Part shown: positions 3,836 through 44,618 of the stretch, piece by piece
Numbering within the stretch: position 1 is the first letter of the stretch
How the letters are laid out: every line of letters starts with the position of its first letter
Origin: a virus
Lineage: Duplodnaviria; Caudoviricetes
Strand: one strand, 5' to 3'
IMG/VR virus record: IMGVR_UViG_3300032279_000442
Span: 1-45,069 of that record
Length of the DNA: 45,069 nt
Position numbers and translations under genes: made by a program
The notes under the pieces: generated by a model
The model's database searches: none
What the model saw: the letters and a program-made list of their open reading frames with translations, nothing else
What the model was told of the DNA's origin: nothing

Positions 3836-4467
3836 AGGTTAGGTTCAATTTTGTCGCTTTCAACGAGAGCGAATTTGTAGGCCGATATGCTCTCCTCGGC
3901 TCGACGGCTCGCTTTCCCGAGTCGTTCGATAAATGTTTTCTCGCCGCTGACGGGGTTCATTAGGAACCAAGCTCCTACGCGGTTATTTCTGATGACCCAG
4001 TCCAAGAATCCCCTAGGGGTCGAGTGGCCCCATACCATCTGGCCTTGGCTCCGCTCGTCGTTAAAGACGACGGTTCTCTCCCCGTCGGCATAGACCATGC
4101 GGAGGTAGTCATGCACCGTGACACTGCGGGGGTCGATCGGGCTCATAGCCTCTATCTCCTCGAAGGAAGTTGGTCCCTCTTTGGTGGCTTCTTTGATGGC
4201 GTCGGGATCGAGGTCGTGGCGCGGTATGTAGTGTATGCGGTTATGCAACCCGCCCCCACGAATTTTGCGAAGGGTGTTTTCGACTTCTCCTGGCTGGGCA
4301 GGGCGAGACATCCAGTGGTCAACCCACGCCTCGATGTCGTCATCGTCCAAGCCCGCGTTCACGAGCCCGTTAATCACGAGGTAGAGCCAGCGGTGGCACC
4401 CTTCGCCAGACGGAGGGCACTCCGGCAAACACAAGTCACTTGGATGGTGTTCCTTCGGGTCGATCAT
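3538..4467 (-). CDS. DNA primase (AEP/RepB-primase-like)
   Basis: LVESD, SGNESAH and RLTRLP resemble primase-polymerase catalytic motifs; lies between the polymerase and helicase genes. Confidence 0.7.
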   Translation of the reverse strand: MIDPKEHHPSDLCLPECPPSGEGCHRWLYLVINGLVNAGLDDDDIEAWVDHWMSRPAQPGEVENTLRKIRGGGLHNRIHYIPRHDLDPDAIKEATKEGPTSFEEIEAMSPIDPRSVTVHDYLRMVYADGERTVVFNDERSQGQMVWGHSTPRGFLDWVIRNNRVGAWFLMNPVSGEKTFIERLGKASRRAEESISAYKFALVESDKIEPNLWLTILKKLPLPIISITLSGNESAHSIILVGATSKEQWSERVRKLASLVVPLGACQGSLTAVRLTRLPFVERKDTGKEQRLLFLNPTPSPLPLTMQSAS

Positions 4468-4585
4468 TTTTTGGTTTCTTGAATATCTGGTCGTAGTTCT
4501 CCCGATACTTTTGCCAGTTTGTGTTTGCGCGGGCCTGTGGCCCTGTGCCAGTCCTTACTTTTTTTAGTTCGATCGTTTTGCTCAT
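4436..4585 (-). CDS. Small basic phage peptide (49 aa) overlapping both neighbours
   Basis: MSKTIELKKVRTGTGPQARANTNWQKYRENYDQIFKK resembles small phage proteins ending YxxN(Y/W)DxIFxK (recalled, not searched). Confidence 0.5.
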   Translation of the reverse strand: MSKTIELKKVRTGTGPQARANTNWQKYRENYDQIFKKPKNDRPEGTPSK

Positions 4586-4787
4586 AAACTTCCTGACAGA
4601 CTCGACGGATGCGCTTTTCATTCAGTCCCAGCGCGAAGGCTGCGACCGCAAAGGCGTCGGAGTTGAAAAACCTCATCGCGGCATCCCGCTCGGTTTTAAG
4701 TTCGAGATCGGCTCGGGCCTGTTCGATGATCGCGCAGAGGATTCGTCTGGCTCCGAGCGTGTCGAGTGGCAGAAACTTATTTGACAT
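4464..4787 (-). CDS. Hypothetical protein (AIIEQAxxD motif)
   Basis: Coupled to the polymerase stop and primase start; LCAIIEQARADL...AMRFF pattern typical of small phage proteins. Confidence 0.7.
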   Translation of the reverse strand: MSNKFLPLDTLGARRILCAIIEQARADLELKTERDAAMRFFNSDAFAVAAFALGLNEKRIRRVCQEVYEQNDRTKKSKDWHRATGPRKHKLAKVSGELRPDIQETKK

Positions 4788-6519
4788 AGCTTTTGGTCAG
4801 GTTCGCTTCTGCTCCGACGGGCAGATTGGCGCACCATGCTGGGGCGATCGCCATGGTGGATTCGATGTCTTTGAGCGCGGCGTCGGCCTTGTCCTCATCA
4901 ACGAGGCACACCACCTCGTCGTGAACCCGCATGATGACTTCGTAGCCTTTTCGGGTCAGTTCGCTCACCCGATCCATGAAGATGTCGCGGGCAAACGCCT
5001 GCGTGAGGTTTTCCACCAGCAAGCCGCCATAGAGCTTGCTTCGCATCATTTTTCCGTTGCGCGGGATCACGCCCGAGAACTCGCCCTGGGACGCCTTGAT
5101 CTCGCGGTAAACCAACTCGCGCTTCCTTGGGAGTTGGACATTTAGGTTGTTCCCTGCGCTTTCCTCCAGTTTTGCTTGGAGCCTTCTCCAAAGAGTCACG
5201 ATTCTTGGGTTCGAGGCGCGGTAGTCGGCGACGATGCGCTCCGCTTCGGCAGGCGCGATGTCGAGCCCCGCCATCATCTTCGCGACGACCTGGAATTTCT
5301 TGGCTCCGCACCCAAAGCCGAGCCCCAGCACACGGGCCTTGGCGAGTTGTCTCATTGACTTGTCCACCTCTTTGAGCGGGCGCAGGTTGGAGTAGCCCAT
5401 CGTGGCGCGGGCGTGAGCCTCATAAACATCAACGCCAGTCTTGAGAAGATCGAGGGTCGCGTGGTCGCCAGCGAGCCACAGGATGCAGCGGGCTTCAATC
5501 TGCGCGAGGTCACAAACGACGAGCATCTTTCCTTCGGGAGCTTCGATCATCGAGCGAATGTCCACGCCAGAGACAATGTCCCTAGGGAGGTTTTGAGCGT
5601 TCCAGCCGCCACTACCCGAGTCGCGCCCTGTGGTGGCTCCAAAGTATTTCAAATCGTAACCCATCCGCCCGTCGGGGCGGGTTCGGGAGAGCATGGTCTG
5701 GATTGTCTTTAGATGTTTGTTCGCCTTCCGGTGTTCGCGAATCGCGGATACCCAACGATACTTATCGGCGAACTCCTCCTCCCATTTTTGCGCTTGATCT
5801 TCTTTTTCGGCGAAGCTGTCGGGGGCCCAGATGCCCTCGATCGCGCATTGGTCGCGCACCGCATGGAGGCTTAACGCCGGACGCGCAGGATGCCATGGCA
5901 ACAGGTCGCGGGTTTCGTTGGAGGTCTGCTCCAAAGTTACGCTTGCATGGAATAACTTTTTTATATTTACCGGCACGCCCCGCATGGTCATTTCGCGGGT
6001 CACGCGGGACACATGGCGCTCATGCTCCGGCCACTTGTTGCCGTGCTTGAGCCAAAGATTCAAAGTGTTCTCTGCATCGCCGAGCGCGTATTTTTCTACC
6101 TCGGCGCGGAAGTCCACATCCATCGTCTCCCAGCGTTTGCCCTTCATCTTGTCGCGAACATCCTTGGACACCTCGGTCCCGAGAAGGTGGTGACTGGCTT
6201 CTTTGAGTGAGCGGGGGAATCCGAGGAACGCCGTCATGTCGGCGGTGTCAAAGACCTCTCCGCTTACTTGCGGAACAACGCCAGCTTCGATCAGAGCGCC
6301 TAGGAGCGTAAGGTCAAAGGCCGCGTTGTGCATGATCCATGTCGCCCCGTTCACGGCTTCCCAAGGGGCCGACTTCGGATGCCCGACATAGCGGAGGCCG
6401 TCGTCCCCAACCATCGAGACGAGGTAGATGTCGGTGGCGCGGGCGTAGTGCCACGCTCCCATGTCTCCAACGGTGCAGTCCTTGGAGTAGAAGGATTCAA
6501 AGTCGATGGCGTATGTCAT
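4777..6519 (-). CDS. Family A DNA polymerase with 3'-5' exonuclease domain
   Basis: Exo I DFES, Exo II HNAAFD, Exo III YALGD; TTGR, motif A DLAQIEAR, motif B RQLAKARVLGLGFG, motif C VHDE. Confidence 0.95.
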   Translation of the reverse strand: MTYAIDFESFYSKDCTVGDMGAWHYARATDIYLVSMVGDDGLRYVGHPKSAPWEAVNGATWIMHNAAFDLTLLGALIEAGVVPQVSGEVFDTADMTAFLGFPRSLKEASHHLLGTEVSKDVRDKMKGKRWETMDVDFRAEVEKYALGDAENTLNLWLKHGNKWPEHERHVSRVTREMTMRGVPVNIKKLFHASVTLEQTSNETRDLLPWHPARPALSLHAVRDQCAIEGIWAPDSFAEKEDQAQKWEEEFADKYRWVSAIREHRKANKHLKTIQTMLSRTRPDGRMGYDLKYFGATTGRDSGSGGWNAQNLPRDIVSGVDIRSMIEAPEGKMLVVCDLAQIEARCILWLAGDHATLDLLKTGVDVYEAHARATMGYSNLRPLKEVDKSMRQLAKARVLGLGFGCGAKKFQVVAKMMAGLDIAPAEAERIVADYRASNPRIVTLWRRLQAKLEESAGNNLNVQLPRKRELVYREIKASQGEFSGVIPRNGKMMRSKLYGGLLVENLTQAFARDIFMDRVSELTRKGYEVIMRVHDEVVCLVDEDKADAALKDIESTMAIAPAWCANLPVGAEANLTKSYVK

Positions 6520-7913
6520 TTTATGAGTTCATCCCAGAGGACGCGAAAAGCTCGCTCTGCTGCGGCAGGCACGACTCCGTTGCCGAGGAGTCGAAGCTCG
6601 TCGGTTCGATTGTCAGAGCGCACCATCCACTCACAAATTTCGGCCAGTTCTTGATGACTGAGGCCGGACAACTCGGCGAGGTCCACCCCATGCAGACGCC
6701 TTGGAGCGTTTCGACCCAACGCGGGTTCAGTTTTGCTGATTTGTTCCCGTTCGCAGCATGATCCCGCAGTTTGTATTTCCCCGCACAGCCCTCCCGCATC
6801 TCCATCACGCCGCCCTCGCCGTCCGAAGATGACGGGGTTCGCCATTGCTTCTCCACTTCGTGCAAGACTTGCGTCTGAATCGGCTTGTGAAGGTTCACTC
6901 CCTTCTCCGTCTGCTGGTATTCCGCTCGCTTCGTCCATTGCTCCGTGTTCTCCGGCGGTTGATAGCAAAACGCATTCGGCGTTGCCCAATTCTGGACCTT
7001 CTCCACCTGTTGATTTATTGTCTGGGATTGCAGCACCATCCGTCCATCCGGCGTCTTGCGGTAGGCTCTCTCGCCCGGTCTCGCTGGTTGTCCATCCTTC
7101 GTGTAAAGCGTCTCCACTCTCGCTCCCGCTTCGTTGGCTTGCGGTGTGCGCCAATCCACCGACCACCCTTGGCGGCTCCCATCCGTGCTGGGGTTGGCCG
7201 GGGCGGCTGGGCCAAGCTCCCCACGATTCGCCATTGCTGACAGACTCGGCCAATTCGCCGCATCCTGCGTCACCACCGCACAGAGGTAGCCCTTTTTCAT
7301 CATGTGATCGTGACTCTTCGACCCAACGGGTCCAACATCCTTGTATTCGCTTGCTCTGATCGTAGGCCAAGATGAAGGCCCGTTTCCGCTGGTGCGGTGC
7401 GCCGACTTCAGACGCGCTGAAAATTCCAGCCGTCGCTTCGTAACCCACCCGCTCCAATTCGCGGAGGGCATGGAGCAAAACAGGCGTCCCTGCGGGATCG
7501 CGCCAGCCGTCTCCGGCGAGTTTGGCGCTGACGATACCCTCGACATTTTCCAAGAAAACAAGGGAAGGTCGGCATTGAGTGATCCCGTCAAGGATGTGGG
7601 GGAAGAGGTGGCGTGGGTCTGAGTCGGCCCCGCGCTTTCCGGCGGCGCTAAATGGTTGGCACGGAAAGCCGCCTGACAAGATACCCACCAGTCCGTGAAA
7701 TTTTCCCCAAGGGAAGGATCGCAAATCGCTCCAGATAGGTGCGTCGTCCAAGTGTCCCGCTTGAGCTTTTGAGACCAAGTGCGCGATGGCGAACCCTTCG
7801 ATCTCTGCATAAGCGAGTGTGCGAAGGCGGTTGCCAAAGATTCTTTTGAGGCCGAGGTCGATACCCCCGTAGCCGCTGCAAAGCGAGAGGTGAGTGATGG
7901 TGTCAGTATCCAC
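6516..7913 (-). CDS. C5 cytosine DNA methyltransferase, catalytic chain (motifs I-VIII and X)
   Basis: HLSLCSGYGG (I), GGFPCQPFS (IV), ENVEG (VI), HQRKRAF (VIII), LRLLGNGVVP (X); likely GTG start at 7913 (frame is open to 7973). Confidence 0.92.
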   Translation of the reverse strand: MDTDTITHLSLCSGYGGIDLGLKRIFGNRLRTLAYAEIEGFAIAHLVSKAQAGHLDDAPIWSDLRSFPWGKFHGLVGILSGGFPCQPFSAAGKRGADSDPRHLFPHILDGITQCRPSLVFLENVEGIVSAKLAGDGWRDPAGTPVLLHALRELERVGYEATAGIFSASEVGAPHQRKRAFILAYDQSKRIQGCWTRWVEESRSHDEKGLPLCGGDAGCGELAESVSNGESWGAWPSRPGQPQHGWEPPRVVGGLAHTASQRSGSESGDALHEGWTTSETGRESLPQDAGWTDGAAIPDNKSTGGEGPELGNAECVLLSTAGEHGAMDEASGIPADGEGSEPSQADSDASLARSGEAMANPVIFGRRGRRDGDAGGLCGEIQTAGSCCEREQISKTEPALGRNAPRRLHGVDLAELSGLSHQELAEICEWMVRSDNRTDELRLLGNGVVPAAAERAFRVLWDELIK

Positions 7914-7915
7914 AT
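6521..7915 (-). CDS. Overprinted methyltransferase partner chain (TRD-like WxTP repeats plus motif IX)
   Basis: 464-codon ORF in a second frame across the whole MTase gene, ATG start; WPTI, WRTP, WATP, WRTP repeats and LNPRWVETLQGVCMGWT. Confidence 0.8.
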   Translation of the reverse strand: MWILTPSLTSRFAAATGVSTSASKESLATAFAHSLMQRSKGSPSRTWSQKLKRDTWTTHLSGAICDPSLGENFTDWWVSCQAAFRANHLAPPESAGPTQTHATSSPTSLTGSLNADLPLFSWKMSRVSSAPNSPETAGAIPQGRLFCSMPSANWSGWVTKRRLEFSARLKSAHRTSGNGPSSWPTIRASEYKDVGPVGSKSHDHMMKKGYLCAVVTQDAANWPSLSAMANRGELGPAAPANPSTDGSRQGWSVDWRTPQANEAGARVETLYTKDGQPARPGERAYRKTPDGRMVLQSQTINQQVEKVQNWATPNAFCYQPPENTEQWTKRAEYQQTEKGVNLHKPIQTQVLHEVEKQWRTPSSSDGEGGVMEMREGCAGKYKLRDHAANGNKSAKLNPRWVETLQGVCMGWTSPSCPASVIKNWPKFVSGWCALTIEPTSFDSSATESCLPQQSELFASSGMNS

Positions 7916-7924
7916 TTAGAGAGG

Positions 7925-7960
7925 TTCGGGTTGTGAGGTTATTACATCTCACAACCCGAA
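7925..7960. promoter_or_regulatory. Perfect 13-bp inverted repeat just upstream of the MTase dual start
   Basis: TTCGGGTTGTGAG (7925-7937) and CTCACAACCCGAA (7948-7960); the 10-nt loop carries the TGTAATAAC motif. Confidence 0.7.
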
Positions 7961-7965
7961 TAATA

Positions 7966-8775
7966 TTACGCAAGGGTTGAGATGAGTTCCTTCTGAGCCT
8001 CGGTGACGAGGCCCGCCGAGCGGATTGTCGGAGTCCACCAAGACTTGTCAGCCTTGGTCATAACGACGCTGCCTAAGTCCCATTGACCGCCCTTGAGACC
8101 TGTTGCGGCAAGGTGGGTGCGGAGGCTGGTCGCGATCGGCACCGCCACGCCGCTGTATGCGGTCGAAGCAAATGTCGCCACGGCGCGAGTGTAGCGGGTG
8201 CCATCCGAAGCGATGTTGTAGAACAACGGCTCGGCATCGTCGCTGATGTCATCCATCGCTTGAATCAAGAACTCCACGGTGGCGATCTCCGAGAAGAAGC
8301 CCGCTCCGCGAGTCCAGTGAACTTGCCCACCGATTTCGCGAACCTCTGAGGCCGTGTTAAAGAGCCTCGCGGGGGTTTGTTCGCGATCGTCGTAAGGAAT
8401 GTTCTCTTGATACTGCTTCAGCATTTGAAGCGTGATGACACGCATGGGAACGCCCTTCTTTTTGTCGGCAGGGTCGATCTTTGAGATGGCGTGTTGCTTG
8501 TCGAGAACCCAAGTGCCAGGGCTGAACTGGTCAGCGAGAACGCCTGTTTTATTGACAAGATTGATGCGCGGGAGGCGTGTGTCTGAGGCACTCCAGTCGC
8601 CAACGAGCCCTTTTTCTGCGAGGGCCGTGGTGGTCGTGATGTTAGCGAGAGCGTTTGCCTCTGGCTGGGTGGTCGCGAGTTGTTTGGACTCGGTGGTGGT
8701 TTCGTCGAATGTTATTGTTGCCATATTTTCGGTTTTTGTGGTTTTTGGTTTTTGTTCTGGGGTTGTGTTAGACAT
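7966..8775 (-). CDS. Putative single-stranded DNA-binding / replication accessory protein
   Basis: Position between Cas4-like nuclease and polymerase; D.RLPRINLV motif; function inferred from synteny only. Confidence 0.55.
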   Translation of the reverse strand: MSNTTPEQKPKTTKTENMATITFDETTTESKQLATTQPEANALANITTTTALAEKGLVGDWSASDTRLPRINLVNKTGVLADQFSPGTWVLDKQHAISKIDPADKKKGVPMRVITLQMLKQYQENIPYDDREQTPARLFNTASEVREIGGQVHWTRGAGFFSEIATVEFLIQAMDDISDDAEPLFYNIASDGTRYTRAVATFASTAYSGVAVPIATSLRTHLAATGLKGGQWDLGSVVMTKADKSWWTPTIRSAGLVTEAQKELISTLA

Positions 8776-8793
8776 TATTAGGTTATATCATGT

Positions 8794-11172
8794 TCAAAAG
8801 TTTTTTGATTTTTTTAAGAACGAGATTGTCCCCTCGACTTTTGCAGCGTTCGCGTCGATCAGCTTGTCGCGTAGAGCCGCTTTGGCTTTAGCCATTTGGC
8901 CTCTTTCCGCGGTGCGGGAGTAGGCTTTTTCCAACTCGCCGATTTTTAGTTTGGCGCAGGCTGCAAAAGCCTCCGGCGTTATTTTTTCTTTCACGACTTC
9001 CCACGCTGCTTGCGGGTCAGTGATCTCAAACGCGCTGCTCCGTTCGGCGAGTTCCCATCCTGGGATTTCCACGCCGGAAAGGCGAAGCTCCAAGGCCCGC
9101 GCATCCACTTTCTCCGCCCAACCTTTGAGGATGGGAGCGAGCTTTTTGGCGAGCGCCATTTTCTCGGGGTCGCTGATGATTGCTGGGTCGTATTCCGGCG
9201 GCAGCGCGAGTTCGTCTGGCTGATATTTGCTGGCGATTGTGAGCGCGAGGCTGTTGAGCTTGTGGCACTGTGCGCGGTTATTACACCACGCGCAGTGACT
9301 TCCGGTTTGGTAGTTGGCGGGGTCATTTCGTTTGGCGGCTTCGACAATAGCGGTGACAGCAGCGACAAGCCGGTCGTAATCCGCGTCGCGAGTCCACTCC
9401 ACGACATCAATCACGCCCTGGAAGGGAAGAAGCACATGAACAGAAATTTTGTTTATCTGGGGGTGTGCGTCCCAAATTCCGATGCTGTAAGCCCAAAATT
9501 GAGGAGAATCCGCTTCATATTTTCCCCACGCGAACTTGTAATCAACCAATTCGGCGGTGTCACCGTGAAGCATAATGTGATCAATGTGCCCGAACTGATC
9601 GAGCACGATGTAGCGCCGTTCCCGAATCTCCTCCAGCCCTGCTCCACACTTCTCGCGAAGCTGCCGGAGGTATTGCAGGCAGAGCCCCGCGCATTTGCGA
9701 AGGAACTCGTCATCGGCGGGGATGACATCGAGGTTCTCCTTTTCGATCGCGAGGTGCCCTAAGGTGCCGCGGTCGGCGGCTGTGGTGTCTCGCGTGTTGT
9801 CGTTGCGAAAGCCTGGGCATTTCGCTTTTTCTTTTAGTGACGACGGAGAATGCTCCGCGTGTTCTTTTTCTGGTGGTGCCGCCGCGATCGACACCTCTGC
9901 TATGTCGCGGTCTGTTGTGTTTTCCATAATTCCTTCGTTCAAAATTTGTTGGTTTTCGCGCTTGTGGCGCGTGAGGTGCAGGGCCGCTTGCTCGACCGTC
10001 CCTGGCGCGTAGAGGCGCAGTGCCAGAGCGCGGTTCTTAGCCCCGACGCGGCGCACCCGCCCGATCGCTTGTTCCTCTGCCGTGCCTGAAAATTGCGGGC
10101 AAAGAAGGGCCGTGCGCGGCGCGTTGCCGTGCGTGTCGTGGAGGTCGATAGATTGACCACCGGCTCCAATTTGGACAACGAGGCAGCGCAGAACATTGGC
10201 TTGAAACCTATCGCGGCTCCCCTGTCGCAATTCCTGCGACACCCGCCCATCAATCGTCTCCGACATCTCCCCCAGCAATGCGGCAGCTTTGTCGATCGAG
10301 GCGTGGAAATTGAGGAACAACACGACGCTCCCGCCCTCTTCGACAATTTCTGACGCTCGCTCGACGAGGTAGGGAACTTTGATGAGTTCGATCGCTTGGC
10401 GCTGCCGCAGATTCTTGACGGCGGCAGGGTCCTCGATGTCGATCATCTCGCCGTAGAGTTTTAAGATTTCGTCGCGATCCTCACTCGAAAGGTGAATTGG
10501 CTCGTCACAGAGTCGGAGTTCGGGGAGTTGGTCGGCCAGCACGGCATCCAAGGTGCGGTTGCCACGACTTGTGAAAATGGAATGATGAAGATGCTCCATT
10601 GCGAGCTTGTTCTCGGGAGTCTTCGGGTCCCATTCAAGCCCGCCCCAGCGCCCGTTCTCCGCGCCCATCTTTCTTACCCAGCCCCAGAACGCCCTAGGGT
10701 GAAACAGGCCGAGCTTGGAGCCAATCGCTTTCATGCGAAGCGGGCTCTCCGCTGCCGTTGCCGACAGCATCAGCACTCGGTAGGGGGCTACTTCGAGCAT
10801 CTTGCTGTTTGTCGATTTGTAGCCTGCGAACATATGAACTTCGTCCACGACCAACAGGAGATGGACGGGAGTCCACTTAAAATCTTTGCCTGACTTTTTG
10901 ACCCATGGGGTGTTTCCCGCACGGAGCTTTTCAGGGTTCTCCACGAACACCGGCTCGATGCCGAAAGCCTCCAGAGTGGCTCGCCACTTGGCTTTGACGC
11001 TCTTGGGGCAGACGACTCCCACGGGTAGCCCGTAGCGCCGCGCCACTTCGCAGGCGATGATTGTTTTGCCGCCCCCGCAGCCGGTCGCCTCCAGTGAGGC
11101 TCCGTTGGCGTCGAGACTCGCGAGGTTTTTCTCCACCGCGTCTTGTTGAAATGGGTAAAGGGAGAACTTCAT
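8794..11172 (-). CDS. SF2 helicase fused to a Cas4-like PD-(D/E)xK nuclease (DUF2800-like)
   Basis: YPFQ, GCGGGKT, DEVH, SAT, QAIGRVRRVG; then HSPSS...CPG, GTLGH, GHID, DYK and CAWCNNRAQC. Confidence 0.88.
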   Translation of the reverse strand: MKFSLYPFQQDAVEKNLASLDANGASLEATGCGGGKTIIACEVARRYGLPVGVVCPKSVKAKWRATLEAFGIEPVFVENPEKLRAGNTPWVKKSGKDFKWTPVHLLLVVDEVHMFAGYKSTNSKMLEVAPYRVLMLSATAAESPLRMKAIGSKLGLFHPRAFWGWVRKMGAENGRWGGLEWDPKTPENKLAMEHLHHSIFTSRGNRTLDAVLADQLPELRLCDEPIHLSSEDRDEILKLYGEMIDIEDPAAVKNLRQRQAIELIKVPYLVERASEIVEEGGSVVLFLNFHASIDKAAALLGEMSETIDGRVSQELRQGSRDRFQANVLRCLVVQIGAGGQSIDLHDTHGNAPRTALLCPQFSGTAEEQAIGRVRRVGAKNRALALRLYAPGTVEQAALHLTRHKRENQQILNEGIMENTTDRDIAEVSIAAAPPEKEHAEHSPSSLKEKAKCPGFRNDNTRDTTAADRGTLGHLAIEKENLDVIPADDEFLRKCAGLCLQYLRQLREKCGAGLEEIRERRYIVLDQFGHIDHIMLHGDTAELVDYKFAWGKYEADSPQFWAYSIGIWDAHPQINKISVHVLLPFQGVIDVVEWTRDADYDRLVAAVTAIVEAAKRNDPANYQTGSHCAWCNNRAQCHKLNSLALTIASKYQPDELALPPEYDPAIISDPEKMALAKKLAPILKGWAEKVDARALELRLSGVEIPGWELAERSSAFEITDPQAAWEVVKEKITPEAFAACAKLKIGELEKAYSRTAERGQMAKAKAALRDKLIDANAAKVEGTISFLKKSKNF

Positions 11173-11447
11173 TCCTCCTCGAAGCCCGCAATCTGGGCGG
11201 CACAGCGGGCATAGCCCGCAATATCGACATACGAGTCGCGAGTCGGCGTGTAAACAGTCCTTGCGATTTTGAGGAGAATCATCAAGTGGGCCACATCCAG
11301 AGGCGAAAGCGGGGCGGTCGGGTCTTTGCGGGCCTGAATATAGGCATTCCAGTGGGCCGCGATTCGCTCGTGGTTGGGGGTGGCTTTGTCGTAATCGCGG
11401 CGGCGGTCGCCGCTCGTCACTTCCAAGGCGGTGTCGAGGATACTCAT
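11169..11447 (-). CDS. DUF6378-like protein
   Basis: GDRRRDY...RIAAHW...MILLKIAR...DSYVDIAGYA signature. Confidence 0.8.
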   Translation of the reverse strand: MSILDTALEVTSGDRRRDYDKATPNHERIAAHWNAYIQARKDPTAPLSPLDVAHLMILLKIARTVYTPTRDSYVDIAGYARCAAQIAGFEEE

Positions 11448-34434: not shown

Positions 34435-34437
34435 TTT

Positions 34438-35667: not shown

Positions 35668-35688
35668 AAGCGTAGCTTCCCCCTCCCC

Positions 35689-35907: not shown

Positions 35908-37239
35908 ATGGCAGCATTACAAAATATCGAACAACTTTTCGTAGAGTGGGGCGGTCTCATCCGCAACAATGTCGCGAAGAACATCGTAACCTCCGACTTC
36001 TACCTCAAATATCTTCCTAAAGATAAGTGGGTGGATGGTCAGGGCAACGCAGTCAGCTATCCTATTTTCGAGCGTTCGCTTTCCAGCGCCGCGGTCTCGA
36101 CTCCAGGTGGCGTGATTTTTGAGAACTGGACCTCCTCGGGCGGCGATGGCGACAACGCCACCAAGAGCGGCACCTACACCGCTTCCCCGAACAACTCCAA
36201 CCTCATTGGAGCCAACGGCGGACCCCTCCCTCGCACGGGTATGCTCGGCGGCGGAAGCCAAATCGTCGGTCAGAAGATCGACTCTTTCGGCGTGACCGTT
36301 CGCACGATGAGCCTCAAAAAGGCGGCTCTCAACAGCCCCGACATCAACCTCGATGACCTCCAATTCGCTTGGCAGGTCGAGGACCAGGTCAAGAATGTGA
36401 TCCGCGTCCTTTCCGAGAACACCAAGTATGTCTGGACCAACACTTATCAGGACGAATATGTCAACGCCTGCGGCCAAAAATCCGTGGCGGTGTCAAACTT
36501 CGACCCTAACACATCTGTTTTCGCTGCCACTCCGGCGACCTCGAAGCTCACCTGGGGCATCCTCGAAGCAATTTATGAGCAACTCGGCTACAACGGCGGG
36601 TCGATCAACCCGTTCGCTCGCGTGGACGAGATGACTCCGATCTACGCCGCGGTCGGCGAGCGTTACACCTTCAGTGATCTGAAGCGCCAAGACGCCAATG
36701 TTCGTGACGACTATCGTTACGCTTACATGGGCAGCGGCGACAGCAATCCAATGATGGCTGCTCCTGGTTTGAACACCATCACTCGCGGCTTCAAATTCTT
36801 CACCGTGGAGCTTCCTCCGCGCTACGAGTTTGACGCTGTGGCTGGTGCCTGGGTCCGTGTGTTCCCATACGAGCCAATCGCGACCTCGCGTGGAATGCGT
36901 TGGGAGATCAGCGCCCGTTACAAGGCCGCTCCTTACACCGACACGGTGATTTACCATCAGGATGTGATGAAAGTCCTCACTCCTTCGCCCCGCACGAGCA
37001 AGGGCGGCATGACCTACAACCCATCTTATAGCTGGGCTGGCGAGTTCGTGTGGAGGAACATCCCTGACCGCGAGAGCAACATCGACGGTTCGACCGGCTT
37101 CTTCCGTGCGCTCTATGCCTACGGCTCGAAAGTCGAGCGCCCCGAGTTGGGCTTTGTGGTTCGCCACCTCCGTTGCGTGGATCGTGCAACCGATCTCACC
37201 GACTGCGACGGCGACGCTGTCTGCCCTCCGACTCCCTGA
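35908..37239 (+). CDS. Major capsid protein
   Basis: 443 aa after the scaffold, with its own leader region and a downstream hairpin; assignment mostly from synteny and size. Confidence 0.75.
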   Translation: MAALQNIEQLFVEWGGLIRNNVAKNIVTSDFYLKYLPKDKWVDGQGNAVSYPIFERSLSSAAVSTPGGVIFENWTSSGGDGDNATKSGTYTASPNNSNLIGANGGPLPRTGMLGGGSQIVGQKIDSFGVTVRTMSLKKAALNSPDINLDDLQFAWQVEDQVKNVIRVLSENTKYVWTNTYQDEYVNACGQKSVAVSNFDPNTSVFAATPATSKLTWGILEAIYEQLGYNGGSINPFARVDEMTPIYAAVGERYTFSDLKRQDANVRDDYRYAYMGSGDSNPMMAAPGLNTITRGFKFFTVELPPRYEFDAVAGAWVRVFPYEPIATSRGMRWEISARYKAAPYTDTVIYHQDVMKVLTPSPRTSKGGMTYNPSYSWAGEFVWRNIPDRESNIDGSTGFFRALYAYGSKVERPELGFVVRHLRCVDRATDLTDCDGDAVCPPTP

Positions 37240-37258
37240 GTAGGTAAGCCCTCAAACA

Positions 37259-37288
37259 CCGCCTCCTTGCCCTAGGGCGAGGGGGCGG
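37259..37288 (+). terminator. GC-rich hairpin after the capsid gene (probable terminator)
   Basis: CCGCCTCCTTGCC / GGCGAGGGGGCGG stem centred on CCCTAGGG; weak T-tract. Confidence 0.55.
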
Positions 37289-37322
37289 AATTGAGGTTTT
37301 ACAATCAACCCAAACAAACACC

Positions 37323-37565
37323 ATGGTTAAATTCCCGATGCCGGAAGGCTACACACTCCCCGAGGGCGCTGACAAAGGCACCTTCGAGGCTCTTGCAACT
37401 TTGGAAGTCGATGGCGAAAGTCTCGTGCTTACCGCGATCGACGGGCTCCCTGTCGGCGGTGAGGGCGAGACGGAAGAAACCGAAGAAGACGAGTCCTACT
37501 CTGAAGCGACCGATCCCAACACGGGGGATTTCCAAAAAGCCGTAATGATGGGCATGGGACAGTAA
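37323..37565 (+). CDS. Small acidic hypothetical protein
   Basis: 80-aa ORF with AAACACC-ATG start. Confidence 0.7.
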   Translation: MVKFPMPEGYTLPEGADKGTFEALATLEVDGESLVLTAIDGLPVGGEGETEETEEDESYSEATDPNTGDFQKAVMMGMGQ

Positions 37566-37571
37566 CGCCCT

Positions 37572-39644
37572 ATGAGTCTCGGCAGGGACAAACGGCGATT
37601 ATTGGACGGGTTCCGCGGGCTACCGCTGGGCATGGACGGGTCGAAAGACCCGACCCTCGTTCCCAACGGCTCGGCGTTTTACGCTCAGAATGTCACTTTT
37701 CGAGGCGGGAGCGGGCCCAAGACGCGCCCTGGATTTTCCTACAAAACCCTTTCTGGCACTGGAAGCGGCACGCTGAAAGATGGCAAGCTCTTTCAAGGCT
37801 GGGGCGTTTACAATTTGGCTCTAGCGGGGCAGCAGAGCTGCATCCTCGCGGCGGTGGATGGGAACATACTGCAAATTACTCCTAGTGGCACGGGCAGTTT
37901 GGCGGTCGAAAATCTCTCGTCTTCGACGGGGCTCAAGATGAGCACCTCGAAACCGGTGTATTTTTGCCAAGCGGGTCGGTTTGTGGTAATTCAAGACGGC
38001 ATATCAAGCCCTTTAATTTTTGTTTCCAATGTCAGTCCTAAACTGCAAACCGCTGCGTCTTTTACTCAGTCTGCGTTGAAGGGGATCGCGTCGGTTCCGA
38101 CGGGCACGCACATGGCTTACGGGCAGGGGAGGTTGTATGTGGCAGTGACGGAAAGCGCGATTCGGGCGGGGGACATCGCATTTGGTGGGTCCACAAGCAA
38201 AAAGAAAATCATATCGTCCGCGATCGCTGCCGATGGAAAAAAACAAGTGTTTACGATCGACGGAGGGAACCCTTTTACAAATGGTCAGTATGTGACGATC
38301 CAGGCTCACACTTCGCTAAACCTCGTGGATGGAACCTACGAAATCATCGAGCGCACCAACACCACTTTCACAATCTATGTGGATGCGGGCTCCGACGGAG
38401 TAAGCGGCTGGGTGAGCGCCTTCAATGCGGGGCAGGACATAGATGTGCTCCACTTCAGCGAGCATGGGTTTATCAACGAAGGCGGTGATTTGATTATCCC
38501 TGCCGAGCTAGGGCAAATCCGAGCTTTGACCTTTCTGCCCGTGCAAGACACAGCGGCAGGGCAGGGCGATCTGGTGGCGTTCTGCGAGCGCGGAGCGGCT
38601 ACCTTTGCGGTGAGCTTGCCCCGCACAAGTTGGAAAGAAACGCAGGGCTTCCAGAAAATTTTATTTTTGAATGTCGGCATGGTGGGAGAGAGCGTCTGCC
38701 CTGTGAACGGAGACTTGTATTTCCGCTCGATGGACGGCAATGGCATCCGCAGCTATCGCAACGCCCGAGCGGAGTTTGCAGGCGCGGGGCAGACGCCGCT
38801 TTCTTCCGAGATCGACCCGATCCTAACCCGCGACACAGAGTTTCTTTTGGAGAAGGATGTGAGGGTGCAGTCGGTAGGCAATTTGTTGAGCGTAGGGGTG
38901 AGCCTCATTGCGTTTGACAACCGCCTCTTGATGACTTGTCTGCCAAAAACCCAAACCGCCGAAGCGGGTTCGGGCCAACCGTATTTCACCAAGTTCACGG
39001 GAATCGCCGCGCTGGATTTTAAGTCGGTATCGGGGAACATGGGCAAGTCAAACTCGGTGTATGACGGAGTGTGGACGGGCATCGACGCGTTGAGTTTGGC
39101 CTCGGGCAACTTCGACGGGGTGCGGCGGGCGTTTGCGTTTTGCTACCACAATAGCAACCATGAGATTTGGGAGATCACGAAGGACGCCGAGGCGGACACA
39201 GGAGTAAACGGAAAGAGCAACATCGTGTGCTCGGTGACTACGAAGAACTTCGACATGGAATACCCGCTCATGCTCAAGAAGCTCCTGCGGTGCGACCTGT
39301 GGTTCGACTCGATCAGCGGCGGGCCGACTTCCGCTCTCGACATCACGCTCTACTACCGCCCCGACTCCAGCCCGAAATACATCGAGTGGGCGACATGGCA
39401 GAGGTGCTTTACGACCCAATACACAGCGGGCGTGGCGGCGATCGACTTGACGACTCCCTTCGCCAAGGGCTACGCGCCGCAGCTTCGTTCCCCAACTCCT
39501 CCGCAAACGGACAATGCCATCACGGGGGTCCCTGACAACCTCGGCTACGATTTTGGCTTCAAGGTCAAGTGGGTCGGGCACGGGCGGTTGGCGCGGTTGA
39601 TGGTTCACGCGCTGGAGGCGGTCGAGAATGTGGGAGGTGGGTAA
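37572..39644 (+). CDS. Podovirus tail tubular / DNA-stabilisation (nozzle)-like protein
   Basis: 690 aa beta-rich protein after the capsid gene; NVTFRGG..KTRPG N-terminus typical of P22 gp10/T7 gp12-type positions (inference). Confidence 0.65.
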   Translation: MSLGRDKRRLLDGFRGLPLGMDGSKDPTLVPNGSAFYAQNVTFRGGSGPKTRPGFSYKTLSGTGSGTLKDGKLFQGWGVYNLALAGQQSCILAAVDGNILQITPSGTGSLAVENLSSSTGLKMSTSKPVYFCQAGRFVVIQDGISSPLIFVSNVSPKLQTAASFTQSALKGIASVPTGTHMAYGQGRLYVAVTESAIRAGDIAFGGSTSKKKIISSAIAADGKKQVFTIDGGNPFTNGQYVTIQAHTSLNLVDGTYEIIERTNTTFTIYVDAGSDGVSGWVSAFNAGQDIDVLHFSEHGFINEGGDLIIPAELGQIRALTFLPVQDTAAGQGDLVAFCERGAATFAVSLPRTSWKETQGFQKILFLNVGMVGESVCPVNGDLYFRSMDGNGIRSYRNARAEFAGAGQTPLSSEIDPILTRDTEFLLEKDVRVQSVGNLLSVGVSLIAFDNRLLMTCLPKTQTAEAGSGQPYFTKFTGIAALDFKSVSGNMGKSNSVYDGVWTGIDALSLASGNFDGVRRAFAFCYHNSNHEIWEITKDAEADTGVNGKSNIVCSVTTKNFDMEYPLMLKKLLRCDLWFDSISGGPTSALDITLYYRPDSSPKYIEWATWQRCFTTQYTAGVAAIDLTTPFAKGYAPQLRSPTPPQTDNAITGVPDNLGYDFGFKVKWVGHGRLARLMVHALEAVENVGGG

Positions 39645-42560
39645 ATGTGGGTAGGGTTCCATAATGGGGACGGTTCCTTAAAAACAAGGATCGTCTTAAA
39701 GAACCCTTACACAAACCCGAGCACGCCTTATTCGTCTAGTGGGCAGTTTGAAAATACTTTTAACGGGGAGGCGTTAAACTCCGCAGGGACTAGGGTTGCG
39801 GGGCCCACTTTATTTCGCTGCACATCAGGGACAAATTATTTTAATATCCCTGGCGGCGGGTTTTTTGTTATTTCCCCAGTTACATCAGGGGCTAATGACT
39901 CTTATGGGTTTAATTTGGAATGGCCCGACACTAGATCGTCTCAAACAATTTCCTTTGATAAAATACAAAATGTAATTGTTGGTCAATCAGTTACTCTTTC
40001 TGCGACGGCGAGTTCAGGGTTAGCTGTAACTTTTAACGCAAGCCCTTCTTCAGTTGCGTCTGTTTCTGGGAATGTTTTAATCGTCAAGAGCGCAGGATCA
40101 TTTACGGTATCGGCTAGACAAGCGGGGGACTCCACATATTTGCCCGCAAGCGCAGCGCAGACAATTACTTCGCTTGCGCCTCAGACGATCACTTTCAAAA
40201 TTCCTAAAGTCCCCCGAACATACACCGAGGACGACGGTTCGATTGTCAACGAAGAGTTGGAAATTTATGAGACTTTCGTAGATGACTCTCCCGAAAGCGC
40301 CACGGTTATCCTGCAAGCGTCATCTGACTCTGGATTGACCGAGTTCACTTATACCTCCAGCGACCCCGCAGTCGCTCTCGTGTTTGACGGCAACAAGCTC
40401 AAGATGCTTCAACGGGCCGAGGTGACAATTACTGCGACACAGCCTGGGGATACTCAATACAACTCCGCATCCGCATCTGCTACAATTTCGCCCACTGCTT
40501 TACCGGCCCCTCAAACGCTGACAGTTACGATCCCAGGGGTGATGAAAGTTGGGGGCACCGCGAATTTTTCGGTTAGCTCCTCGGCGGGGTTCACGGTGTC
40601 TGTAAGTAGTTTTTCGCCGGAAATTATCGAGATCGTTGGAAGCCAGCTTCGCGCTTTGTTACCTGGAGGGGCGATCATTGAGTTCAGCGCCCCAGGAAAT
40701 GAAACCTACGCGGAAATTACGGAATTTTTTTTTGTTTTTGTAGAAGGCTTGCCCCAGACCGTGACTTTTTCTCCAGTTCCTTCGTTGGCAGTCGGAGATG
40801 AAGTGACCTTGAGTGCCACTTCCAGCGCGGGACTCGCTGTTACCTTTTCAAGCTCCGACCCGTTAATTATGTCGGTGACGGGGGCAATACTTAAAATCCT
40901 TCGACAAGGGTATGCCACGATCACCGCGACCGCGGCTACAAGCCCGATTTACAGCGCAGCATCGGCTTCGCAAGATGTGGTGGTCGGCAGTAGCGGGCAG
41001 TCGATTATTTTCCCCGCGATCCCAGAGGTTCCCTATGGCGCGGCGGGGTATGTGGTCGCGGTGTTTGCGACTTCTGGGTTGCCGGTGACGCTGGCAAGCT
41101 CGAACCCCTCGGTGGCAATCGTGCTGGGAAACACGCTTTCGATCCGCGGGGTAGGGACGACTACGATTACCGCATCTCAAGAGGGCAACCCTTTTTGGCT
41201 TCCTGCGACATCCCAGCAACAACTCTTGCGAGTGGTCAAAGCCGAGCAAGGTCTGAACTTTACGCGCCCTCCTTCATTGATCCCTGTCGGGGATCGTGTG
41301 CTGTTGGGGGCCTCGACGACTTCCGGCGAACCGGCGCAATTTTTTGCAACGGGGGCGCTGGCTATTGAAGATGGATATTTGGCTGGGAAGATCATCGGAG
41401 TCGGAACCGTAACCGCGACGGTGGCGGAGACGGACCTCTACAAGCCCGCATCGGTTACTTACGAAGTGACCGTCGGGAAGCTGGATCAGGCGATTTCATT
41501 TGCTGATGTCCAAATCAAATCGTTTACCGATTTTCCGTTTCGGCTGGATGTTTCCTCGAACTCTCAGTTGTCCGTGGCGCTCACAAGCTCGAACTCTTCA
41601 ATTATCGAAATTACGGATGGCAACTTGGCGACCATCAAGGGCACTGGGGTTGTAACGATTGAAGCGGCTCAAACGGGGGACTCGACTTACAACCCCGCGC
41701 CGAGTGTGACTCGACAAATCGCCGTGGAGCGAGGCGTGCAGGCTATCGCGTTTCAAGACATCGCTCCGGTGGCTTTTGGGGTGCCTAGTTTCTCTTTGAG
41801 CGCCAGCGCCCCAGGGGGAAGTGTGGCGTTCGCATCTTCCAACCTCTCGGTGGCGCGGGTGCAAAATGGGAATCAACTCGTGATTCAAGGGCTGGGGGTA
41901 GCGCGGATCATCGCCACGCAGGTAGGGAACCAAAATTATTTTTCCACCTCGGCGGTGCAATCTGTGATCGTGCTACCGACGATCTCAAGTGCGGTAGGGG
42001 TGACAAAGGGTAACGATGACACGGAAGCTCATAGCAGCCTCACAAGCTCGCCTGCGAGCGGAGTTCCTGCGTTCGTCGTCTCCGCGCCAAGCATTGAAGA
42101 TCGGGAGACGCACCTGTCGATTTCTCCAAGCCCCGCGCTAAACTGTGGCGGTTCTCAAATATCCCTAGGAACTCGCGATACGGAGGACCACCAATCGCTG
42201 ACGGCATCCCCAGGGTTTTCTGGGGCGGCGTTTAATATGGGATCGGTGCAGCAAGGAACCGATGAATCGGGGTATTCGGTATCTCTGTCTCCGGCCTACA
42301 CGGGGGCTTCTCCCGCTGTCGGAGCCGCTACGGAGTTTGACATCTCGGATTACCGCGCTTGGTTGGCCTCTGCCGCAAGCTCTGCATCTCCGGTCGTGGC
42401 GCGGTATGACGGGCGCAACGAGTTTGAGGTGTATTTCGCGCCGACCGCGTATGAGCCGGTGGGCTTCTTGAAATGGGCGAAGAGTGGAGTTTCGGGGCGA
42501 ATCTTGAACCGAAGAACCAATGAAGACGGAGTCGAACTAAAAGGAAAAATAGCAATATGA
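39645..42560 (+). CDS. Large protein with tandem Ig-like repeats
   Basis: About eight 80-aa repeats Q(T/S/A)I(T/S)F...A(T/S)SGL.V...SS(N/D)PxVA...G..TITAxQxG..Y. Confidence 0.8.
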   Translation: MWVGFHNGDGSLKTRIVLKNPYTNPSTPYSSSGQFENTFNGEALNSAGTRVAGPTLFRCTSGTNYFNIPGGGFFVISPVTSGANDSYGFNLEWPDTRSSQTISFDKIQNVIVGQSVTLSATASSGLAVTFNASPSSVASVSGNVLIVKSAGSFTVSARQAGDSTYLPASAAQTITSLAPQTITFKIPKVPRTYTEDDGSIVNEELEIYETFVDDSPESATVILQASSDSGLTEFTYTSSDPAVALVFDGNKLKMLQRAEVTITATQPGDTQYNSASASATISPTALPAPQTLTVTIPGVMKVGGTANFSVSSSAGFTVSVSSFSPEIIEIVGSQLRALLPGGAIIEFSAPGNETYAEITEFFFVFVEGLPQTVTFSPVPSLAVGDEVTLSATSSAGLAVTFSSSDPLIMSVTGAILKILRQGYATITATAATSPIYSAASASQDVVVGSSGQSIIFPAIPEVPYGAAGYVVAVFATSGLPVTLASSNPSVAIVLGNTLSIRGVGTTTITASQEGNPFWLPATSQQQLLRVVKAEQGLNFTRPPSLIPVGDRVLLGASTTSGEPAQFFATGALAIEDGYLAGKIIGVGTVTATVAETDLYKPASVTYEVTVGKLDQAISFADVQIKSFTDFPFRLDVSSNSQLSVALTSSNSSIIEITDGNLATIKGTGVVTIEAAQTGDSTYNPAPSVTRQIAVERGVQAIAFQDIAPVAFGVPSFSLSASAPGGSVAFASSNLSVARVQNGNQLVIQGLGVARIIATQVGNQNYFSTSAVQSVIVLPTISSAVGVTKGNDDTEAHSSLTSSPASGVPAFVVSAPSIEDRETHLSISPSPALNCGGSQISLGTRDTEDHQSLTASPGFSGAAFNMGSVQQGTDESGYSVSLSPAYTGASPAVGAATEFDISDYRAWLASAASSASPVVARYDGRNEFEVYFAPTAYEPVGFLKWAKSGVSGRILNRRTNEDGVELKGKIAI

Positions 42561-43912
42561 GCGACAAACTAATCTCCGAACTGGAGGAAAAAACAGGAGT
42601 CGTGGACTCCGATCAAATGGCGGTGGAGGGCGGCGGGGTGACTTGGCGGCTTCCGCTTCTCAAGCTGCGGGAATACCTGTTCGGGATTTTTGCAGTATGG
42701 GCGGGGGCGACCTCGAAAAGCGACTTCCTGTTGTTAAAGCGGTTTGGCGGCGATGCGGTCTATCGAGTGAGTCTGGACAATCTCTTGCCTGATGCGGTGG
42801 TGAAGACAAAGCACCTTGAAGATAGCGTCTCCGCGGACTCAGGCATTACCGCCGCAAAGATTGCTCCAGCCGCAGTGACCCACCCGAAACTTGCGATCGA
42901 CTCGGTTCACACCCACAACATCGCCAACGCCGAGGCCACGAGTTTTGCCAACTGGACTTCAAAGGATTTTGGAACTGGCGTGACCACGGCAAAGATTGTG
43001 GATGGCGCGGTGACAGGGGCTAAAGGCGGCGTGCCGGTGGGGGCGGTGTTTCATTTTGCGGGAAGCAAAGCCCCCGTGGGGTATGTGGCGTGCAACGGAA
43101 ATTTGCTCCCGGCGTTTGACGCGAACAACCCTGGGGCGACCTACACCTCGGCGGACAACATCGAGTCGATCCCCGTGTGGCGGCTTCAGGACTTGCGAAA
43201 CCATTTGGGGACGCAGTTTGGCGTTCAAGGCAAGCTGCCTGATCTGCAGGGAATTTTTGTGCGGGGGTCGGGGAGAAACTCGGTTGCCACAACGAGGGTG
43301 AAGATCAAGCAGGATAACGCGGGGACTTCGGGCAATGTGTTCTGGGGCTCCAGCGAAACCAACGAGGAGCGGCCCAGCACGGTCTCTTACACGATCGAAT
43401 TTTATTCGGATGCGAATTTTGTGACTGCGACGGGGAGCCTCACTTACACTTTGGCGCAGTCGTTGGCGTTTTCCCCGCCGCATCAAATCACGGGGCACGC
43501 CAGAAAATTTTACATGGTCTATGCGAATAAAGGCGCGGTTTCCGGCTCCCTAGGAACAGTGCAGCAGGATGCCATGCAGCAGCATTTTCACAACACGATT
43601 GATCCTAGGCATACTCATGGAGCGGAAGGCCAATGGAAGAACACAAATCACAGCCACGAAATTAAATATAACATTCGCAATGACTTGCAAGGTGGTGGCG
43701 GCAGCCAGGCCGTGAATCACCTCGGATGGAATGGGAACTCAACGAGCTATACTAAGGATATTGACTTAGGGTTCTGCGGAGACTGTGTCGATGTAAGTGT
43801 GGACTCTGCGAGCACCGGCATCACCATTTCCCGTTACCCCAACATTGCTTTCAAAGTGCCTGATGAGACGCGCCCTGTGAACATGGCGCTTTTGGCTTGC
43901 ATAAAGTATTAA
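42557..43912 (+). CDS. Tail fibre protein with phage tail collar domain
   Basis: VPVGAVFHFAGSKAPVGYVACNG...LPDLQGIFVRG, HxH motifs, C-terminal ETRPVNMALLACIKY. Confidence 0.88.
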   Translation: MSDKLISELEEKTGVVDSDQMAVEGGGVTWRLPLLKLREYLFGIFAVWAGATSKSDFLLLKRFGGDAVYRVSLDNLLPDAVVKTKHLEDSVSADSGITAAKIAPAAVTHPKLAIDSVHTHNIANAEATSFANWTSKDFGTGVTTAKIVDGAVTGAKGGVPVGAVFHFAGSKAPVGYVACNGNLLPAFDANNPGATYTSADNIESIPVWRLQDLRNHLGTQFGVQGKLPDLQGIFVRGSGRNSVATTRVKIKQDNAGTSGNVFWGSSETNEERPSTVSYTIEFYSDANFVTATGSLTYTLAQSLAFSPPHQITGHARKFYMVYANKGAVSGSLGTVQQDAMQQHFHNTIDPRHTHGAEGQWKNTNHSHEIKYNIRNDLQGGGGSQAVNHLGWNGNSTSYTKDIDLGFCGDCVDVSVDSASTGITISRYPNIAFKVPDETRPVNMALLACIKY

Positions 43913-43931
43913 CCTAGTTTATTCATACCCT

Positions 43932-44618
43932 ATGACGCCGTTGCAATATGGAACCCTTGTGCCGGGGGAGGATACCTACCCCAACGCGCCGCAAGTTTTG
44001 TTGCAACGATTTGCAGGTAATCTTTTTGTGCCGGAGCAGCCGCAGAGTTTTTACAATTTGAGTGCGCCGGATACCGTGCCGACCAATGCGCTGTGGCTGG
44101 ATAGCCGAAACGGAGCTCTGAAAGTCAATAAGTCGTTGACTTGGGTGAACATCCTCGGAGGAAACTCCGCATTCCGAACCTCCCCGAATAATGGGGCAGT
44201 TTTGGCGGGGACCAACATTTTTAACAAGTCGGCTGCCCCCACTTCAAATAGAGGGGTCGAGGTTGCCAACCTGTCTTTCTCCCCTAGGGCGGTGGGGAAC
44301 CGTGTTTTGGTGGTGGCGCAAGTGCCTGCGATCACAAGCTCGGAGAATGATGTAACGGCTTTTGCCATGCTGAACGCAGGAAGCACTCCGATTGCATTGA
44401 GCGCGGCGCTTTGCCGAGCCGGTGTATTAACCTCTCTTTTTCTGATGGGTTTGCACCTCCCCTCGGTGTCCGAAGTAACCTCCGGCCTTACTTACTCACT
44501 TCGGATCGGAACCGATAGCCCGACCAGTGCCCTTTATTTCAACCGCACGGCGGGGACGGACGCCTTCGGGAATTTTCTTAATGTCCAGATCGTCGCCACG
44601 GAACTCCCTGTAAACTGA
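43932..44618 (+). CDS. Hypothetical tail-associated protein
   Basis: ACCCT-ATG start, beta-rich, within the tail cluster. Confidence 0.65.
   Translation: MTPLQYGTLVPGEDTYPNAPQVLLQRFAGNLFVPEQPQSFYNLSAPDTVPTNALWLDSRNGALKVNKSLTWVNILGGNSAFRTSPNNGAVLAGTNIFNKSAAPTSNRGVEVANLSFSPRAVGNRVLVVAQVPAITSSENDVTAFAMLNAGSTPIALSAALCRAGVLTSLFLMGLHLPSVSEVTSGLTYSLRIGTDSPTSALYFNRTAGTDAFGNFLNVQIVATELPVN

Follow-up and report, generated by a model that had tools for sequence, protein, structure and literature searches.

Chi, DNA uptake sequences and KOPS are short selected words that are read by a DNA-processing machine and are abundant in the host chromosome. Cyanobacteria carry the highly iterated palindrome HIP1 (GCGATCGC) and alternate HIPs (PMC4390886, PMC5861425), and an unexplained genome-wide excess of GATC/GGATCC is described for mycobacteriophage subcluster B3 (PMC4841201). 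The AAA_5 protein pair Vcrx089-090 of IncC plasmids is reported to protect against type I restriction (PMC7498323), while in MANTIS, a host-side system, an AAA+ ATPase is described as loading a methylase on short motifs that are depleted in phages (10.64898/2026.09.23.753747). Here, the octamer CCCTAGGG was analysed in IMG/VR virus record IMGVR_UViG_3300032279_000442 (Duplodnaviria; Caudoviricetes), the window being the whole stretch of 45,069 nucleotides. Comparison with relatives indicated that CCCTAGGG is very probably a selected, phage-specific protein-binding word, and the front domain of a phage-encoded ATPase is its candidate reader.

A preliminary description of the window had reported 14 exact copies of CCCTAGGG, and all 14 coordinates were correct. 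The enrichment it claimed was upheld, while its expectation of about one copy was lowered to 0.3-0.4; a second-order Markov model gave 0.32 and 100 dinucleotide shuffles a mean of 0.37 (maximum 2). Among all 8-mers of the window, CCCTAGGG was the most enriched. Its density was 311 per Mb, or roughly one every 3 kb, with spacings of 69-9333 bases across the 45 kb. Thirteen of the 14 copies lay in genes, in two frames, as had been described: eight as xxC-CCT-AGG-Gxx (Pro-Arg) and five as xCC-CTA-GGG (Leu-Gly), these being the frames that avoid a TAG stop; only the copy at 37270 was intergenic. The codon-preserving shuffle that had been proposed as a check (50 curated genes, genome-wide synonymous, 2000 shuffles) produced a mean of 0.27 genic copies and a maximum of 4, against the 13 found, which ruled out a codon or protein artefact as the source. 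CCT-AGG was used in 8 of 13 Pro-Arg pairs with C before and G after, and in 1 of 27 pairs without the following G; AGG accounted for 58 of the 738 Arg codons in the window. The internal control provided by the NFTxPRG repeats, of which one uses CCTAGG and the other two CCTCGC, was as first stated.

Other elements of that description required adjustment. One-mismatch copies did exist, at 17953, 18523, 42163 and 43548, three of these being one base away from the places quoted, but the supposed avoidance of CTAG did not hold, since the tetramer was hardly depleted in the window (54 vs. 64 expected). The commonest variant, CCCCAGGG/CCCTGGGG, had been overlooked; there were 18 copies vs. 1.7 expected, and 17 within genes vs. 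3.5 by codon shuffle. About half of the CCCCAGGG copies encoded collagen Pro-Gln-Gly, yet the excess persisted under codon shuffle. A longer consensus around CCCTAGGG was rejected, the flank bias being merely mild. The purging of palindromes was a trend opposite to the enrichment of CCCTAGGG: 36 of the 64 six-base palindromes were absent from the window, GTAC was found 0 times and ACGT five times, and CCSGG was nearly purged (6 vs. 130 expected). Sub-lineages of the phage purge differing sets of palindromes.

Of 40 loci related by their polymerase, the word was present in each of the first 17 (61-94% identity); of the remaining 23 (55-68%), 22 lacked it and one had a single copy. In whole records, there were 28 copies of CCCTAGGG in the complete genome G506, the closest complete relative of the window, while the other branch, represented by six near-complete genomes, had none. 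At orthologous sites in close relatives, the same word was found in 297 of 459 pairs (which are non-independent), and CCCCAGGG/CCCTGGGG in 65 of the 162 non-identical pairs. Codons within the word were then compared with the same codons elsewhere, requiring that the amino acid be the same. With the window as reference, synonymous codons in the word were kept in 179 of 234 comparisons (0.76 vs. 0.63 expected); the values were 0.87 vs. 0.63 for G506, and 0.94-0.98 vs. 0.53-0.66 for G505, G513 and G514, which belong to the second sub-lineage. A site bootstrap of this excess excluded zero in seven of eight reference genomes. Of nine control words, excess conservation was seen in CCACAGGG only, itself a member of the same word family.

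Within the window's sub-lineage, the centre of the word was free (CCT 28/47 vs. 23.7; CTA 18/32 vs. 16.8) while the arms were held (AGG 39/44 vs. 23; GGG 32/32 vs. 22.5). Per-position scans resolved the word as CCMYAGGG in this sub-lineage, as YCCTAGGR in G520 and as TCCCAGAG in G551-G553; in G543 and the second sub-lineage, both of which lacked CCCCAGGG, a CTAGGG core emerged. Variant enrichment was graded and lineage-specific. Because sites swapped mainly with CCCCAGGG/CCCTGGGG and were conserved at synonymous positions, the true signal is degenerate and reads approximately CCMYAGGG, CCCTAGGG being its strongest member. Palindromy is not essential to it, since the non-palindromic CCCCAGGG and CCACAGGG were also enriched and conserved, and a sister lineage uses TCCCAGA. 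The graded neighbours of the word suggest a binding protein. Being genome-wide, genic and conserved at synonymous positions, the word fits two of the descriptions first offered for it, a HIP1-like iterated word and a putative protein-binding signal. Scanning viral contigs for a two-copy pattern returned mostly chance pairs and tandem repeats; it yielded G543 and two unrelated proviruses, G548 and G549 (L267-L272), which have 61-62% GC and where GATC is nearly absent.

The record is estimated to be 64% complete, and describes a temperate phage with an integrase, DNA polymerase A, C5 methylase, helicase-nuclease and collagen tail fibres. A tRNA search of the window found none and a PADLOC defence scan gave weak matches only. 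Four runs of one study of freshwater metagenomes each contained 0.22-0.23 of the sampled words; among the runs listed, with shares of at least 0.2, none was of RNA. Bacterial genomes yielded 45 integrase relatives, the three closest (60-61%) being Terrimicrobiaceae bins, in which the integrase and a neighbouring gene stand without other phage genes. A 160-kb host sample shared the phage's depletion of GTAC (0 vs. 166) and ACGT (30 vs. 252). From the integrase relatives and this common loss, the host is likely to be a member of the Terrimicrobiaceae. However, CCCTAGGG occurred 0-20 times per genome (median 3) in 102 Terrimicrobiaceae genomes, and among 401 sampled genomes of the host phylum its count never exceeded 48, reached in a genome of 2.5 Mb (maximum 19 per Mb). 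The suggestions that the octamer is a footprint of host methylation or repair, and that its enrichment would predict the host, were therefore not borne out; given its rarity in that family and phylum, the word is no host predictor, and a host HIP was rejected as its origin. Nor could the C5 methylase of the phage be the cause, as had also been proposed, because its distribution was opposite to that of the word. Among 34 records, seven word-less ones matched it at 40-63% and G551-G555 weakly and partially, while no match was found in the other word-bearing relatives.

A comparison of gene content singled out two adjacent genes, both outside the window, which encode an AAA_5 ATPase and a von Willebrand factor A (vWA) protein. 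No other families were both common to the six lineages that bear the pair and missing from all of five word-less genomes. Where genomes were near-complete (at least 87%), a word, be it CCCTAGGG, YCCTAGGR or TCCCAGA, was present in 6/6 with the pair and 0/8 without it; the best dispersed words in the latter eight were enriched 2-3 fold. G506 carries the pair. The ATPase matched Pfam AAA_5 above cut-off, and the top Foldseek matches of its model were NorQ and CbbQ. Its partner had the MIDAS motifs DxSGS and TDG, besides an HExxH motif, with NorD vWA as top structure matches. On these matches and models, the pair is assigned as a NorQ/CbbQ-type MoxR ATPase with a NorD-like vWA protein. No cultured phage matched the ATPase of these lake phages.

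Searching with the ATPase brought in five new records (G551-G555), none with an excess of CCTAGG, which ruled out the proposition that the pair implies CCTAGG; it was replaced by the proposition that the pair goes with some word. The complete genomes G551-G553 had 51-52 copies of TCCCAGA vs. 7.5-7.9 expected, having been found by their ATPase before the word was seen. G520 has the core genes of the word-less branch and also the pair, and all 35 of its CCTAGG sites lie at 33-66 kb around the pair, several in genes 76-85% identical to those of word-less relatives. In G520, G551-G553 and G555, the word was densest around the pair and the giant gene next to it; its density was nearly even in G506 and G514. 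Early genes around the pair are also interspersed with repeated 18-bp palindromic operator-like sites (L293:1652-8161, L309:4417-10319, L403:412-2402), such as AATCAGAA..TTCTGATT in G551 and TAGTCAGA..TCTGAC in G554; further repeated palindromes occur in G506, G520 and G519.

In the ATPase model, a front domain of three helices, modelled with confidence, is followed by a coiled coil and then by the ATPase. Residues 1-65 resembled Rho-N/SAP models, and the N-terminus is predicted, on this modelling, to be a helix-extension-helix (SAP/Rho-N-like) domain. Between CCTAGG and TCCCAGA lineages, the front domains were 27-44% identical and the ATPase domains 50-64%. When a profile of the front domain was compared with 78 distant ATPases, the best match was L581 (E = 0.001), followed by the L579/L584/L588 group (E = 0.08-0.6); the loci of L581 and this group carry the words CTAACAC and GCTAGCA, and L588, an unrelated phage ATPase, has an N-terminal Pfam SAP domain at cut-off amid GCTAGCA words.

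The generality of the association was evaluated with a word test that was fixed before either of two sets of loci was seen, though informed by the earlier positives. It was applied wherever a locus held at least 8 kb of coding DNA, which was the case for 70 of 80 CobS-like ATPase loci (the 80 best among at least 207 that were confirmed) and for 59 of 80 viral loci taken at random. Once the loci had been clustered, 14/51 ATPase clusters passed vs. 5/50 controls (Fisher p = 0.04). Three of five cultured phages with CobS-like ATPases showed a dispersed word, enriched 3.9-10.9 fold. The Sinorhizobium phage phiM5 (L432, MF074189.1) had 364 CTGWCA spread evenly over 44 kb, about 10-fold over codon shuffle (in genes, CTGTCA 162 vs. 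14.9 and CTGACA 149 vs. 15.7), while 40 kb of the host pSymB had 26 vs. 28 expected. Enriched words were CTAGGA in Tunturi_4 (86 vs. 16), CCTGGA in P106B (78 vs. 20), CCCGGG in PT11-V19 (12 vs. 0.3, in nine genes) and, weakly, CTTAGC in Octobien14 (71 vs. 26). The top word of G556 was rejected as a dispersed word, since it was a collagen repeat. The word of phiM5 also occurs in L589, which has no blastn match to that phage. ATPases with N-termini like 'GL..GK(L/M)S..QA' (L404, L405, L407, L409, L557-L563, L604-L610) lie among AGTCTG, AGTCTA or TGTCTA words. GGGTACC is enriched in genes of the viral contigs L114 and L110 (20 vs. 1.5 and 15 vs. 3.0), and an AAA_5 gene is present in the 407-kb record to which L110 belongs.

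These observations may be interpreted as follows. A CCMYAGGG-type word, kept throughout the phage genes, would mark phage DNA as 'self', and the predicted helix-extension-helix front domain of the phage MoxR ATPase would bind it. The hexameric ATPase would dock on the word soon after infection, and its vWA/HExxH partner, by analogy, would remove host proteins from the phage DNA or cleave them, restriction enzymes or silencers for example. An anti-restriction target is suggested because of the IncC Vcrx089-090 pair and the heavy loss of palindromes in these phages. The phage of the window would carry the pair in its unassembled part, as judged from G506. The whole chain, by which the word marks phage DNA, is read by the front domain and directs the MoxR/vWA pair to act there, is plausible but falls short of probable; the link between ATPase and word is a strong lead and not a result. 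A broader reading is tentative and rather doubtful: that many phage genes annotated as 'CobS' or 'porphyrin biosynthesis' might encode DNA-addressed AAA+ machines with a swappable N-terminal DNA-binding domain, and that the word, absent from the host and written hundreds of times into a phage's own genes, might be a self mark on unmodified DNA, where the ATPase and vWA protein clear host defence proteins. If true, the DNA-addressed reading would account for iterated words that differ from one phage lineage to the next. For HIP1 and similar words no reader has been available in three decades, and a candidate reader is now proposed for a comparable phage word. Should the link hold, a widespread and mislabelled phage gene would gain a function, and there would be a new means of discriminating between self and non-self DNA that needs no chemical modification; phiM5, with 8 copies per kb, offers a bench-testable case on Sinorhizobium meliloti. 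The literature searches, which did not extend to subscription papers or supplements, brought up nothing that connects a MoxR/CobS ATPase of phages with a DNA word, and nothing on CCCTAGGG in phages, where the whole-word matches listed were unrelated by title; the host test and the ATPase link are new here.

Several observations weigh against this interpretation. The pair was sought in the 64%-complete window record and was absent. The unrelated proviruses G548 and G549 had 16 and 21 copies of CCCTAGGG and no AAA_5 match. TCCCAGA was rated weak in G555 (23 vs. 4.9) and reached only 8 vs. 3.2 in G554, half a genome with the pair, while G525 had 17 vs. 7.5 without it. The CCTAGG block of G520 could be a single import. 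Two of the six pair lineages came in through the ATPase search itself, and because there are only about five independent lineages or contrasts, word and pair may simply have been inherited together. All structural look-alikes of residues 1-65 were under the threshold of the tool, and Pfam detected no SAP or Rho_N in six lake-phage ATPase N-termini; the front end of the phiM5 ATPase had no SAP/Rho-N match, and L572, the sole Rho_N-like ATPase, failed the word test. That test was failed by 37/51 distant-ATPase clusters and passed by 5/50 controls, with a p of only 0.04. The closest plasmid relative, a Variovorax plasmid region, showed no word, and neither did L398 or L401, their ATPases having other N-termini. 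The tblastn matches did not include IncC Vcrx089. The MoxR/vWA pairs described so far act as protein remodellers, and none is known to bind DNA. Lastly, word density was highest in or near the giant gene, with 21 CCCYAGGG sites there in G506, 16 of 35 sites in G520 and 12 of 23 in G555.

This distribution would also be expected if the selected, protein-bound word were read by the giant polyvalent protein (3,300-4,000 aa), which might draw the entering genome in or shield it. The giants of different lineages are strongly divergent and have LPD or ART-PolyVal domains, but word-less genomes also encode them, the giant gene of G514 has one copy vs. 16 in the genome, phiM5 lacks such an annotated giant, and 12 giants gave no match to any DNA-binding, methylase or helicase family; this reader is rather unlikely. 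Proteins of this size occur in all near-complete relatives examined, some with LPD23, LPD37 or ART-PolyVal (L362-L372, L228:5289-16727).

A host protein, be it a defence, repair or nucleoid factor, might instead read the word, and lineages would then differ because their hosts do. The host is inferred and unrelated proviruses share the word without the ATPase, which such a reader would accommodate; yet the host genomes are almost without the word, unlike the situation with Chi, uptake sequences or HIP1, and G520 is tagged over only half of its genome, making a host reader quite improbable. A search for a host-encoded vWA partner found none in 102 family genomes at E 1e-20, though without a positive control.

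A functionless mutational sink, driven by methylation or repair, would turn CCCCGGGG by C-to-T change first into CCCCAGGG and later into CCCTAGGG; alternatively, near-words would be converted by a repair enzyme. The purge of CCSGG would be consistent with this, as would the status of CCCCAGGG as commonest neighbour and commonest aligned alternative, and Elhai's model for HIPs, as set out in PMC4390886, is of the same kind; directed repair could also mimic conservation. Simple Dcm-type decay was ruled out, because other NCTAGG words were not enriched. Moreover, the synonymous positions flanking the centre are held, neither the second sub-lineage nor G543 has CCCCAGGG, the decay path does not pass through CCACAGGG or TCCCAGA, and the phage methylase is distributed oppositely to the word; a sink of either form is accordingly an improbable explanation. 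Finally, the few independent lineages and weak general association would be consistent with word and pair being independent traits inherited together, the word perhaps serving in nicking, packaging or replication restart, but this is very unlikely given that words with CTAR/YAG cores recur next to ATPases that are unrelated and yet have helix-extension-helix-like fronts (L579/L588, L581, L586).

Individual sites in the window varied in their retention. In genes on the minus strand, all as Pro-Arg, CCCTAGGG occurs at 4011..4018 in a primase-like gene (3538-4467), where it was kept in 1/10 aligned relatives, at 5580..5587 in the DNA polymerase A gene (4777-6519), where one relative encodes identical residues with three synonymous changes, and at 10692..10699 in the helicase-nuclease gene (8794-11172). 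On the plus strand, the collagen tail-fibre gene (19978-22644) has a Pro-Arg copy at 20025..20032 and another in the first NFTxPRG repeat at 20355..20362, the latter kept in 7/8 aligned relatives. Leu-Gly copies, likewise on the plus strand, are at 23908..23915 (gene 23547-24578; kept in 7/7), 28197..28204 (a 56-aa ORF, 28121-28291, where CCCTGGGG alternates in relatives), 30687..30694 (gene 30629-31396), and 32011..32018 and 32080..32087 (both in gene 31371-33701). The remaining plus-strand genic copies are Pro-Arg: 28834..28841, at the 3' end of the endolysin gene (28400-28846), where CCCCAGGG alternates in relatives; 34260..34267 (gene 34147-34434), replaced by CCCCAGGG in most relatives; and 44282..44289 (gene 43932-44618), where no relative aligned. 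The intergenic copy at 37270..37277 lies in the loop of a strong 13-bp GC-rich hairpin and was kept in 8/8 aligned relatives; the conserved 443-aa gene before it, though without a family match, is likely to encode the major capsid protein. The 18 dispersed copies of the sister word CCCCAGGG/CCCTGGGG span 669..45010, and represent the same signal as CCCTAGGG in this lineage.

The tyrosine integrase on which the host assignment was grounded lies at 12827..14032 (minus strand), and the C5 DNA methyltransferase at 6516..7973 (minus strand). The 792-aa ORF at 8794-11172 fuses a helicase to a Cas4-like DUF2800 nuclease. The primase-like ORF overlaps a 553-aa DUF5906 ORF by about 300 bases (region 2174-4467), possibly through a split or frameshift, as G520 has a single 764-aa ORF matching the DUF5906 ORF. 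A second word, TAATAACC/GGTTATTA, occurs 12 times vs. 0.4 expected (2050, 7937, 9276, 12416, 12836, 14086, 18924, 23500, 23527, 30604, 30620 and 35774); seven copies sit 2-40 bases upstream of a start on the same strand, and the word is found in word-bearing and word-less relatives alike. It is likely to be a promoter -10 element. Unrelated to the dispersed word, L121:1480-3400 contains an array of hairpin-like TTTCCCCTAGGGGTTT units.

Compared with the systems described above, CCCTAGGG most resembles HIP1, as presented in those articles: it is also a GC-rich palindrome of 8 bp, about 40-fold enriched, genic and conserved beyond coding need, in a manner like that of HIPs in PMC5861425, and its density is at the low end of the 300-2700 per Mb given for HIP1. 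It differs in being carried by a phage and not by the likely host chromosome, from which, unlike Chi, DNA uptake sequences and KOPS, it is nearly absent. In PMC4390886, every HIP discussed is tied to a methylase and CCCTAGGG is missing from the table of anomalous HIPs; no matching methylase was found for the phage word, which is degenerate, partly non-palindromic and changes between lineages. CCCTAGGG therefore works like a HIP but falls outside that class because it is not abundant in a cellular chromosome, that of the inferred host. Like the palindrome excess of B3 mycobacteriophages, it is confined to one phage lineage, but the excess there is about 4-fold and, in the account of PMC4841201, comes with no gene link or conservation test. 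The gene pair has the same ATPase and vWA folds, in adjacent genes, as NorQ-NorD, CbbQ-CbbO and phage 'CobS/CobT-like' pairs, and its ATPase shares AAA_5 with IncC Vcrx089, which is reported to help evade type I restriction (PMC7498323). The phage ATPase differs from these MoxR/vWA systems in adding an N-terminal helix-extension-helix-like domain and a coiled coil, and its partner in having an HExxH motif.

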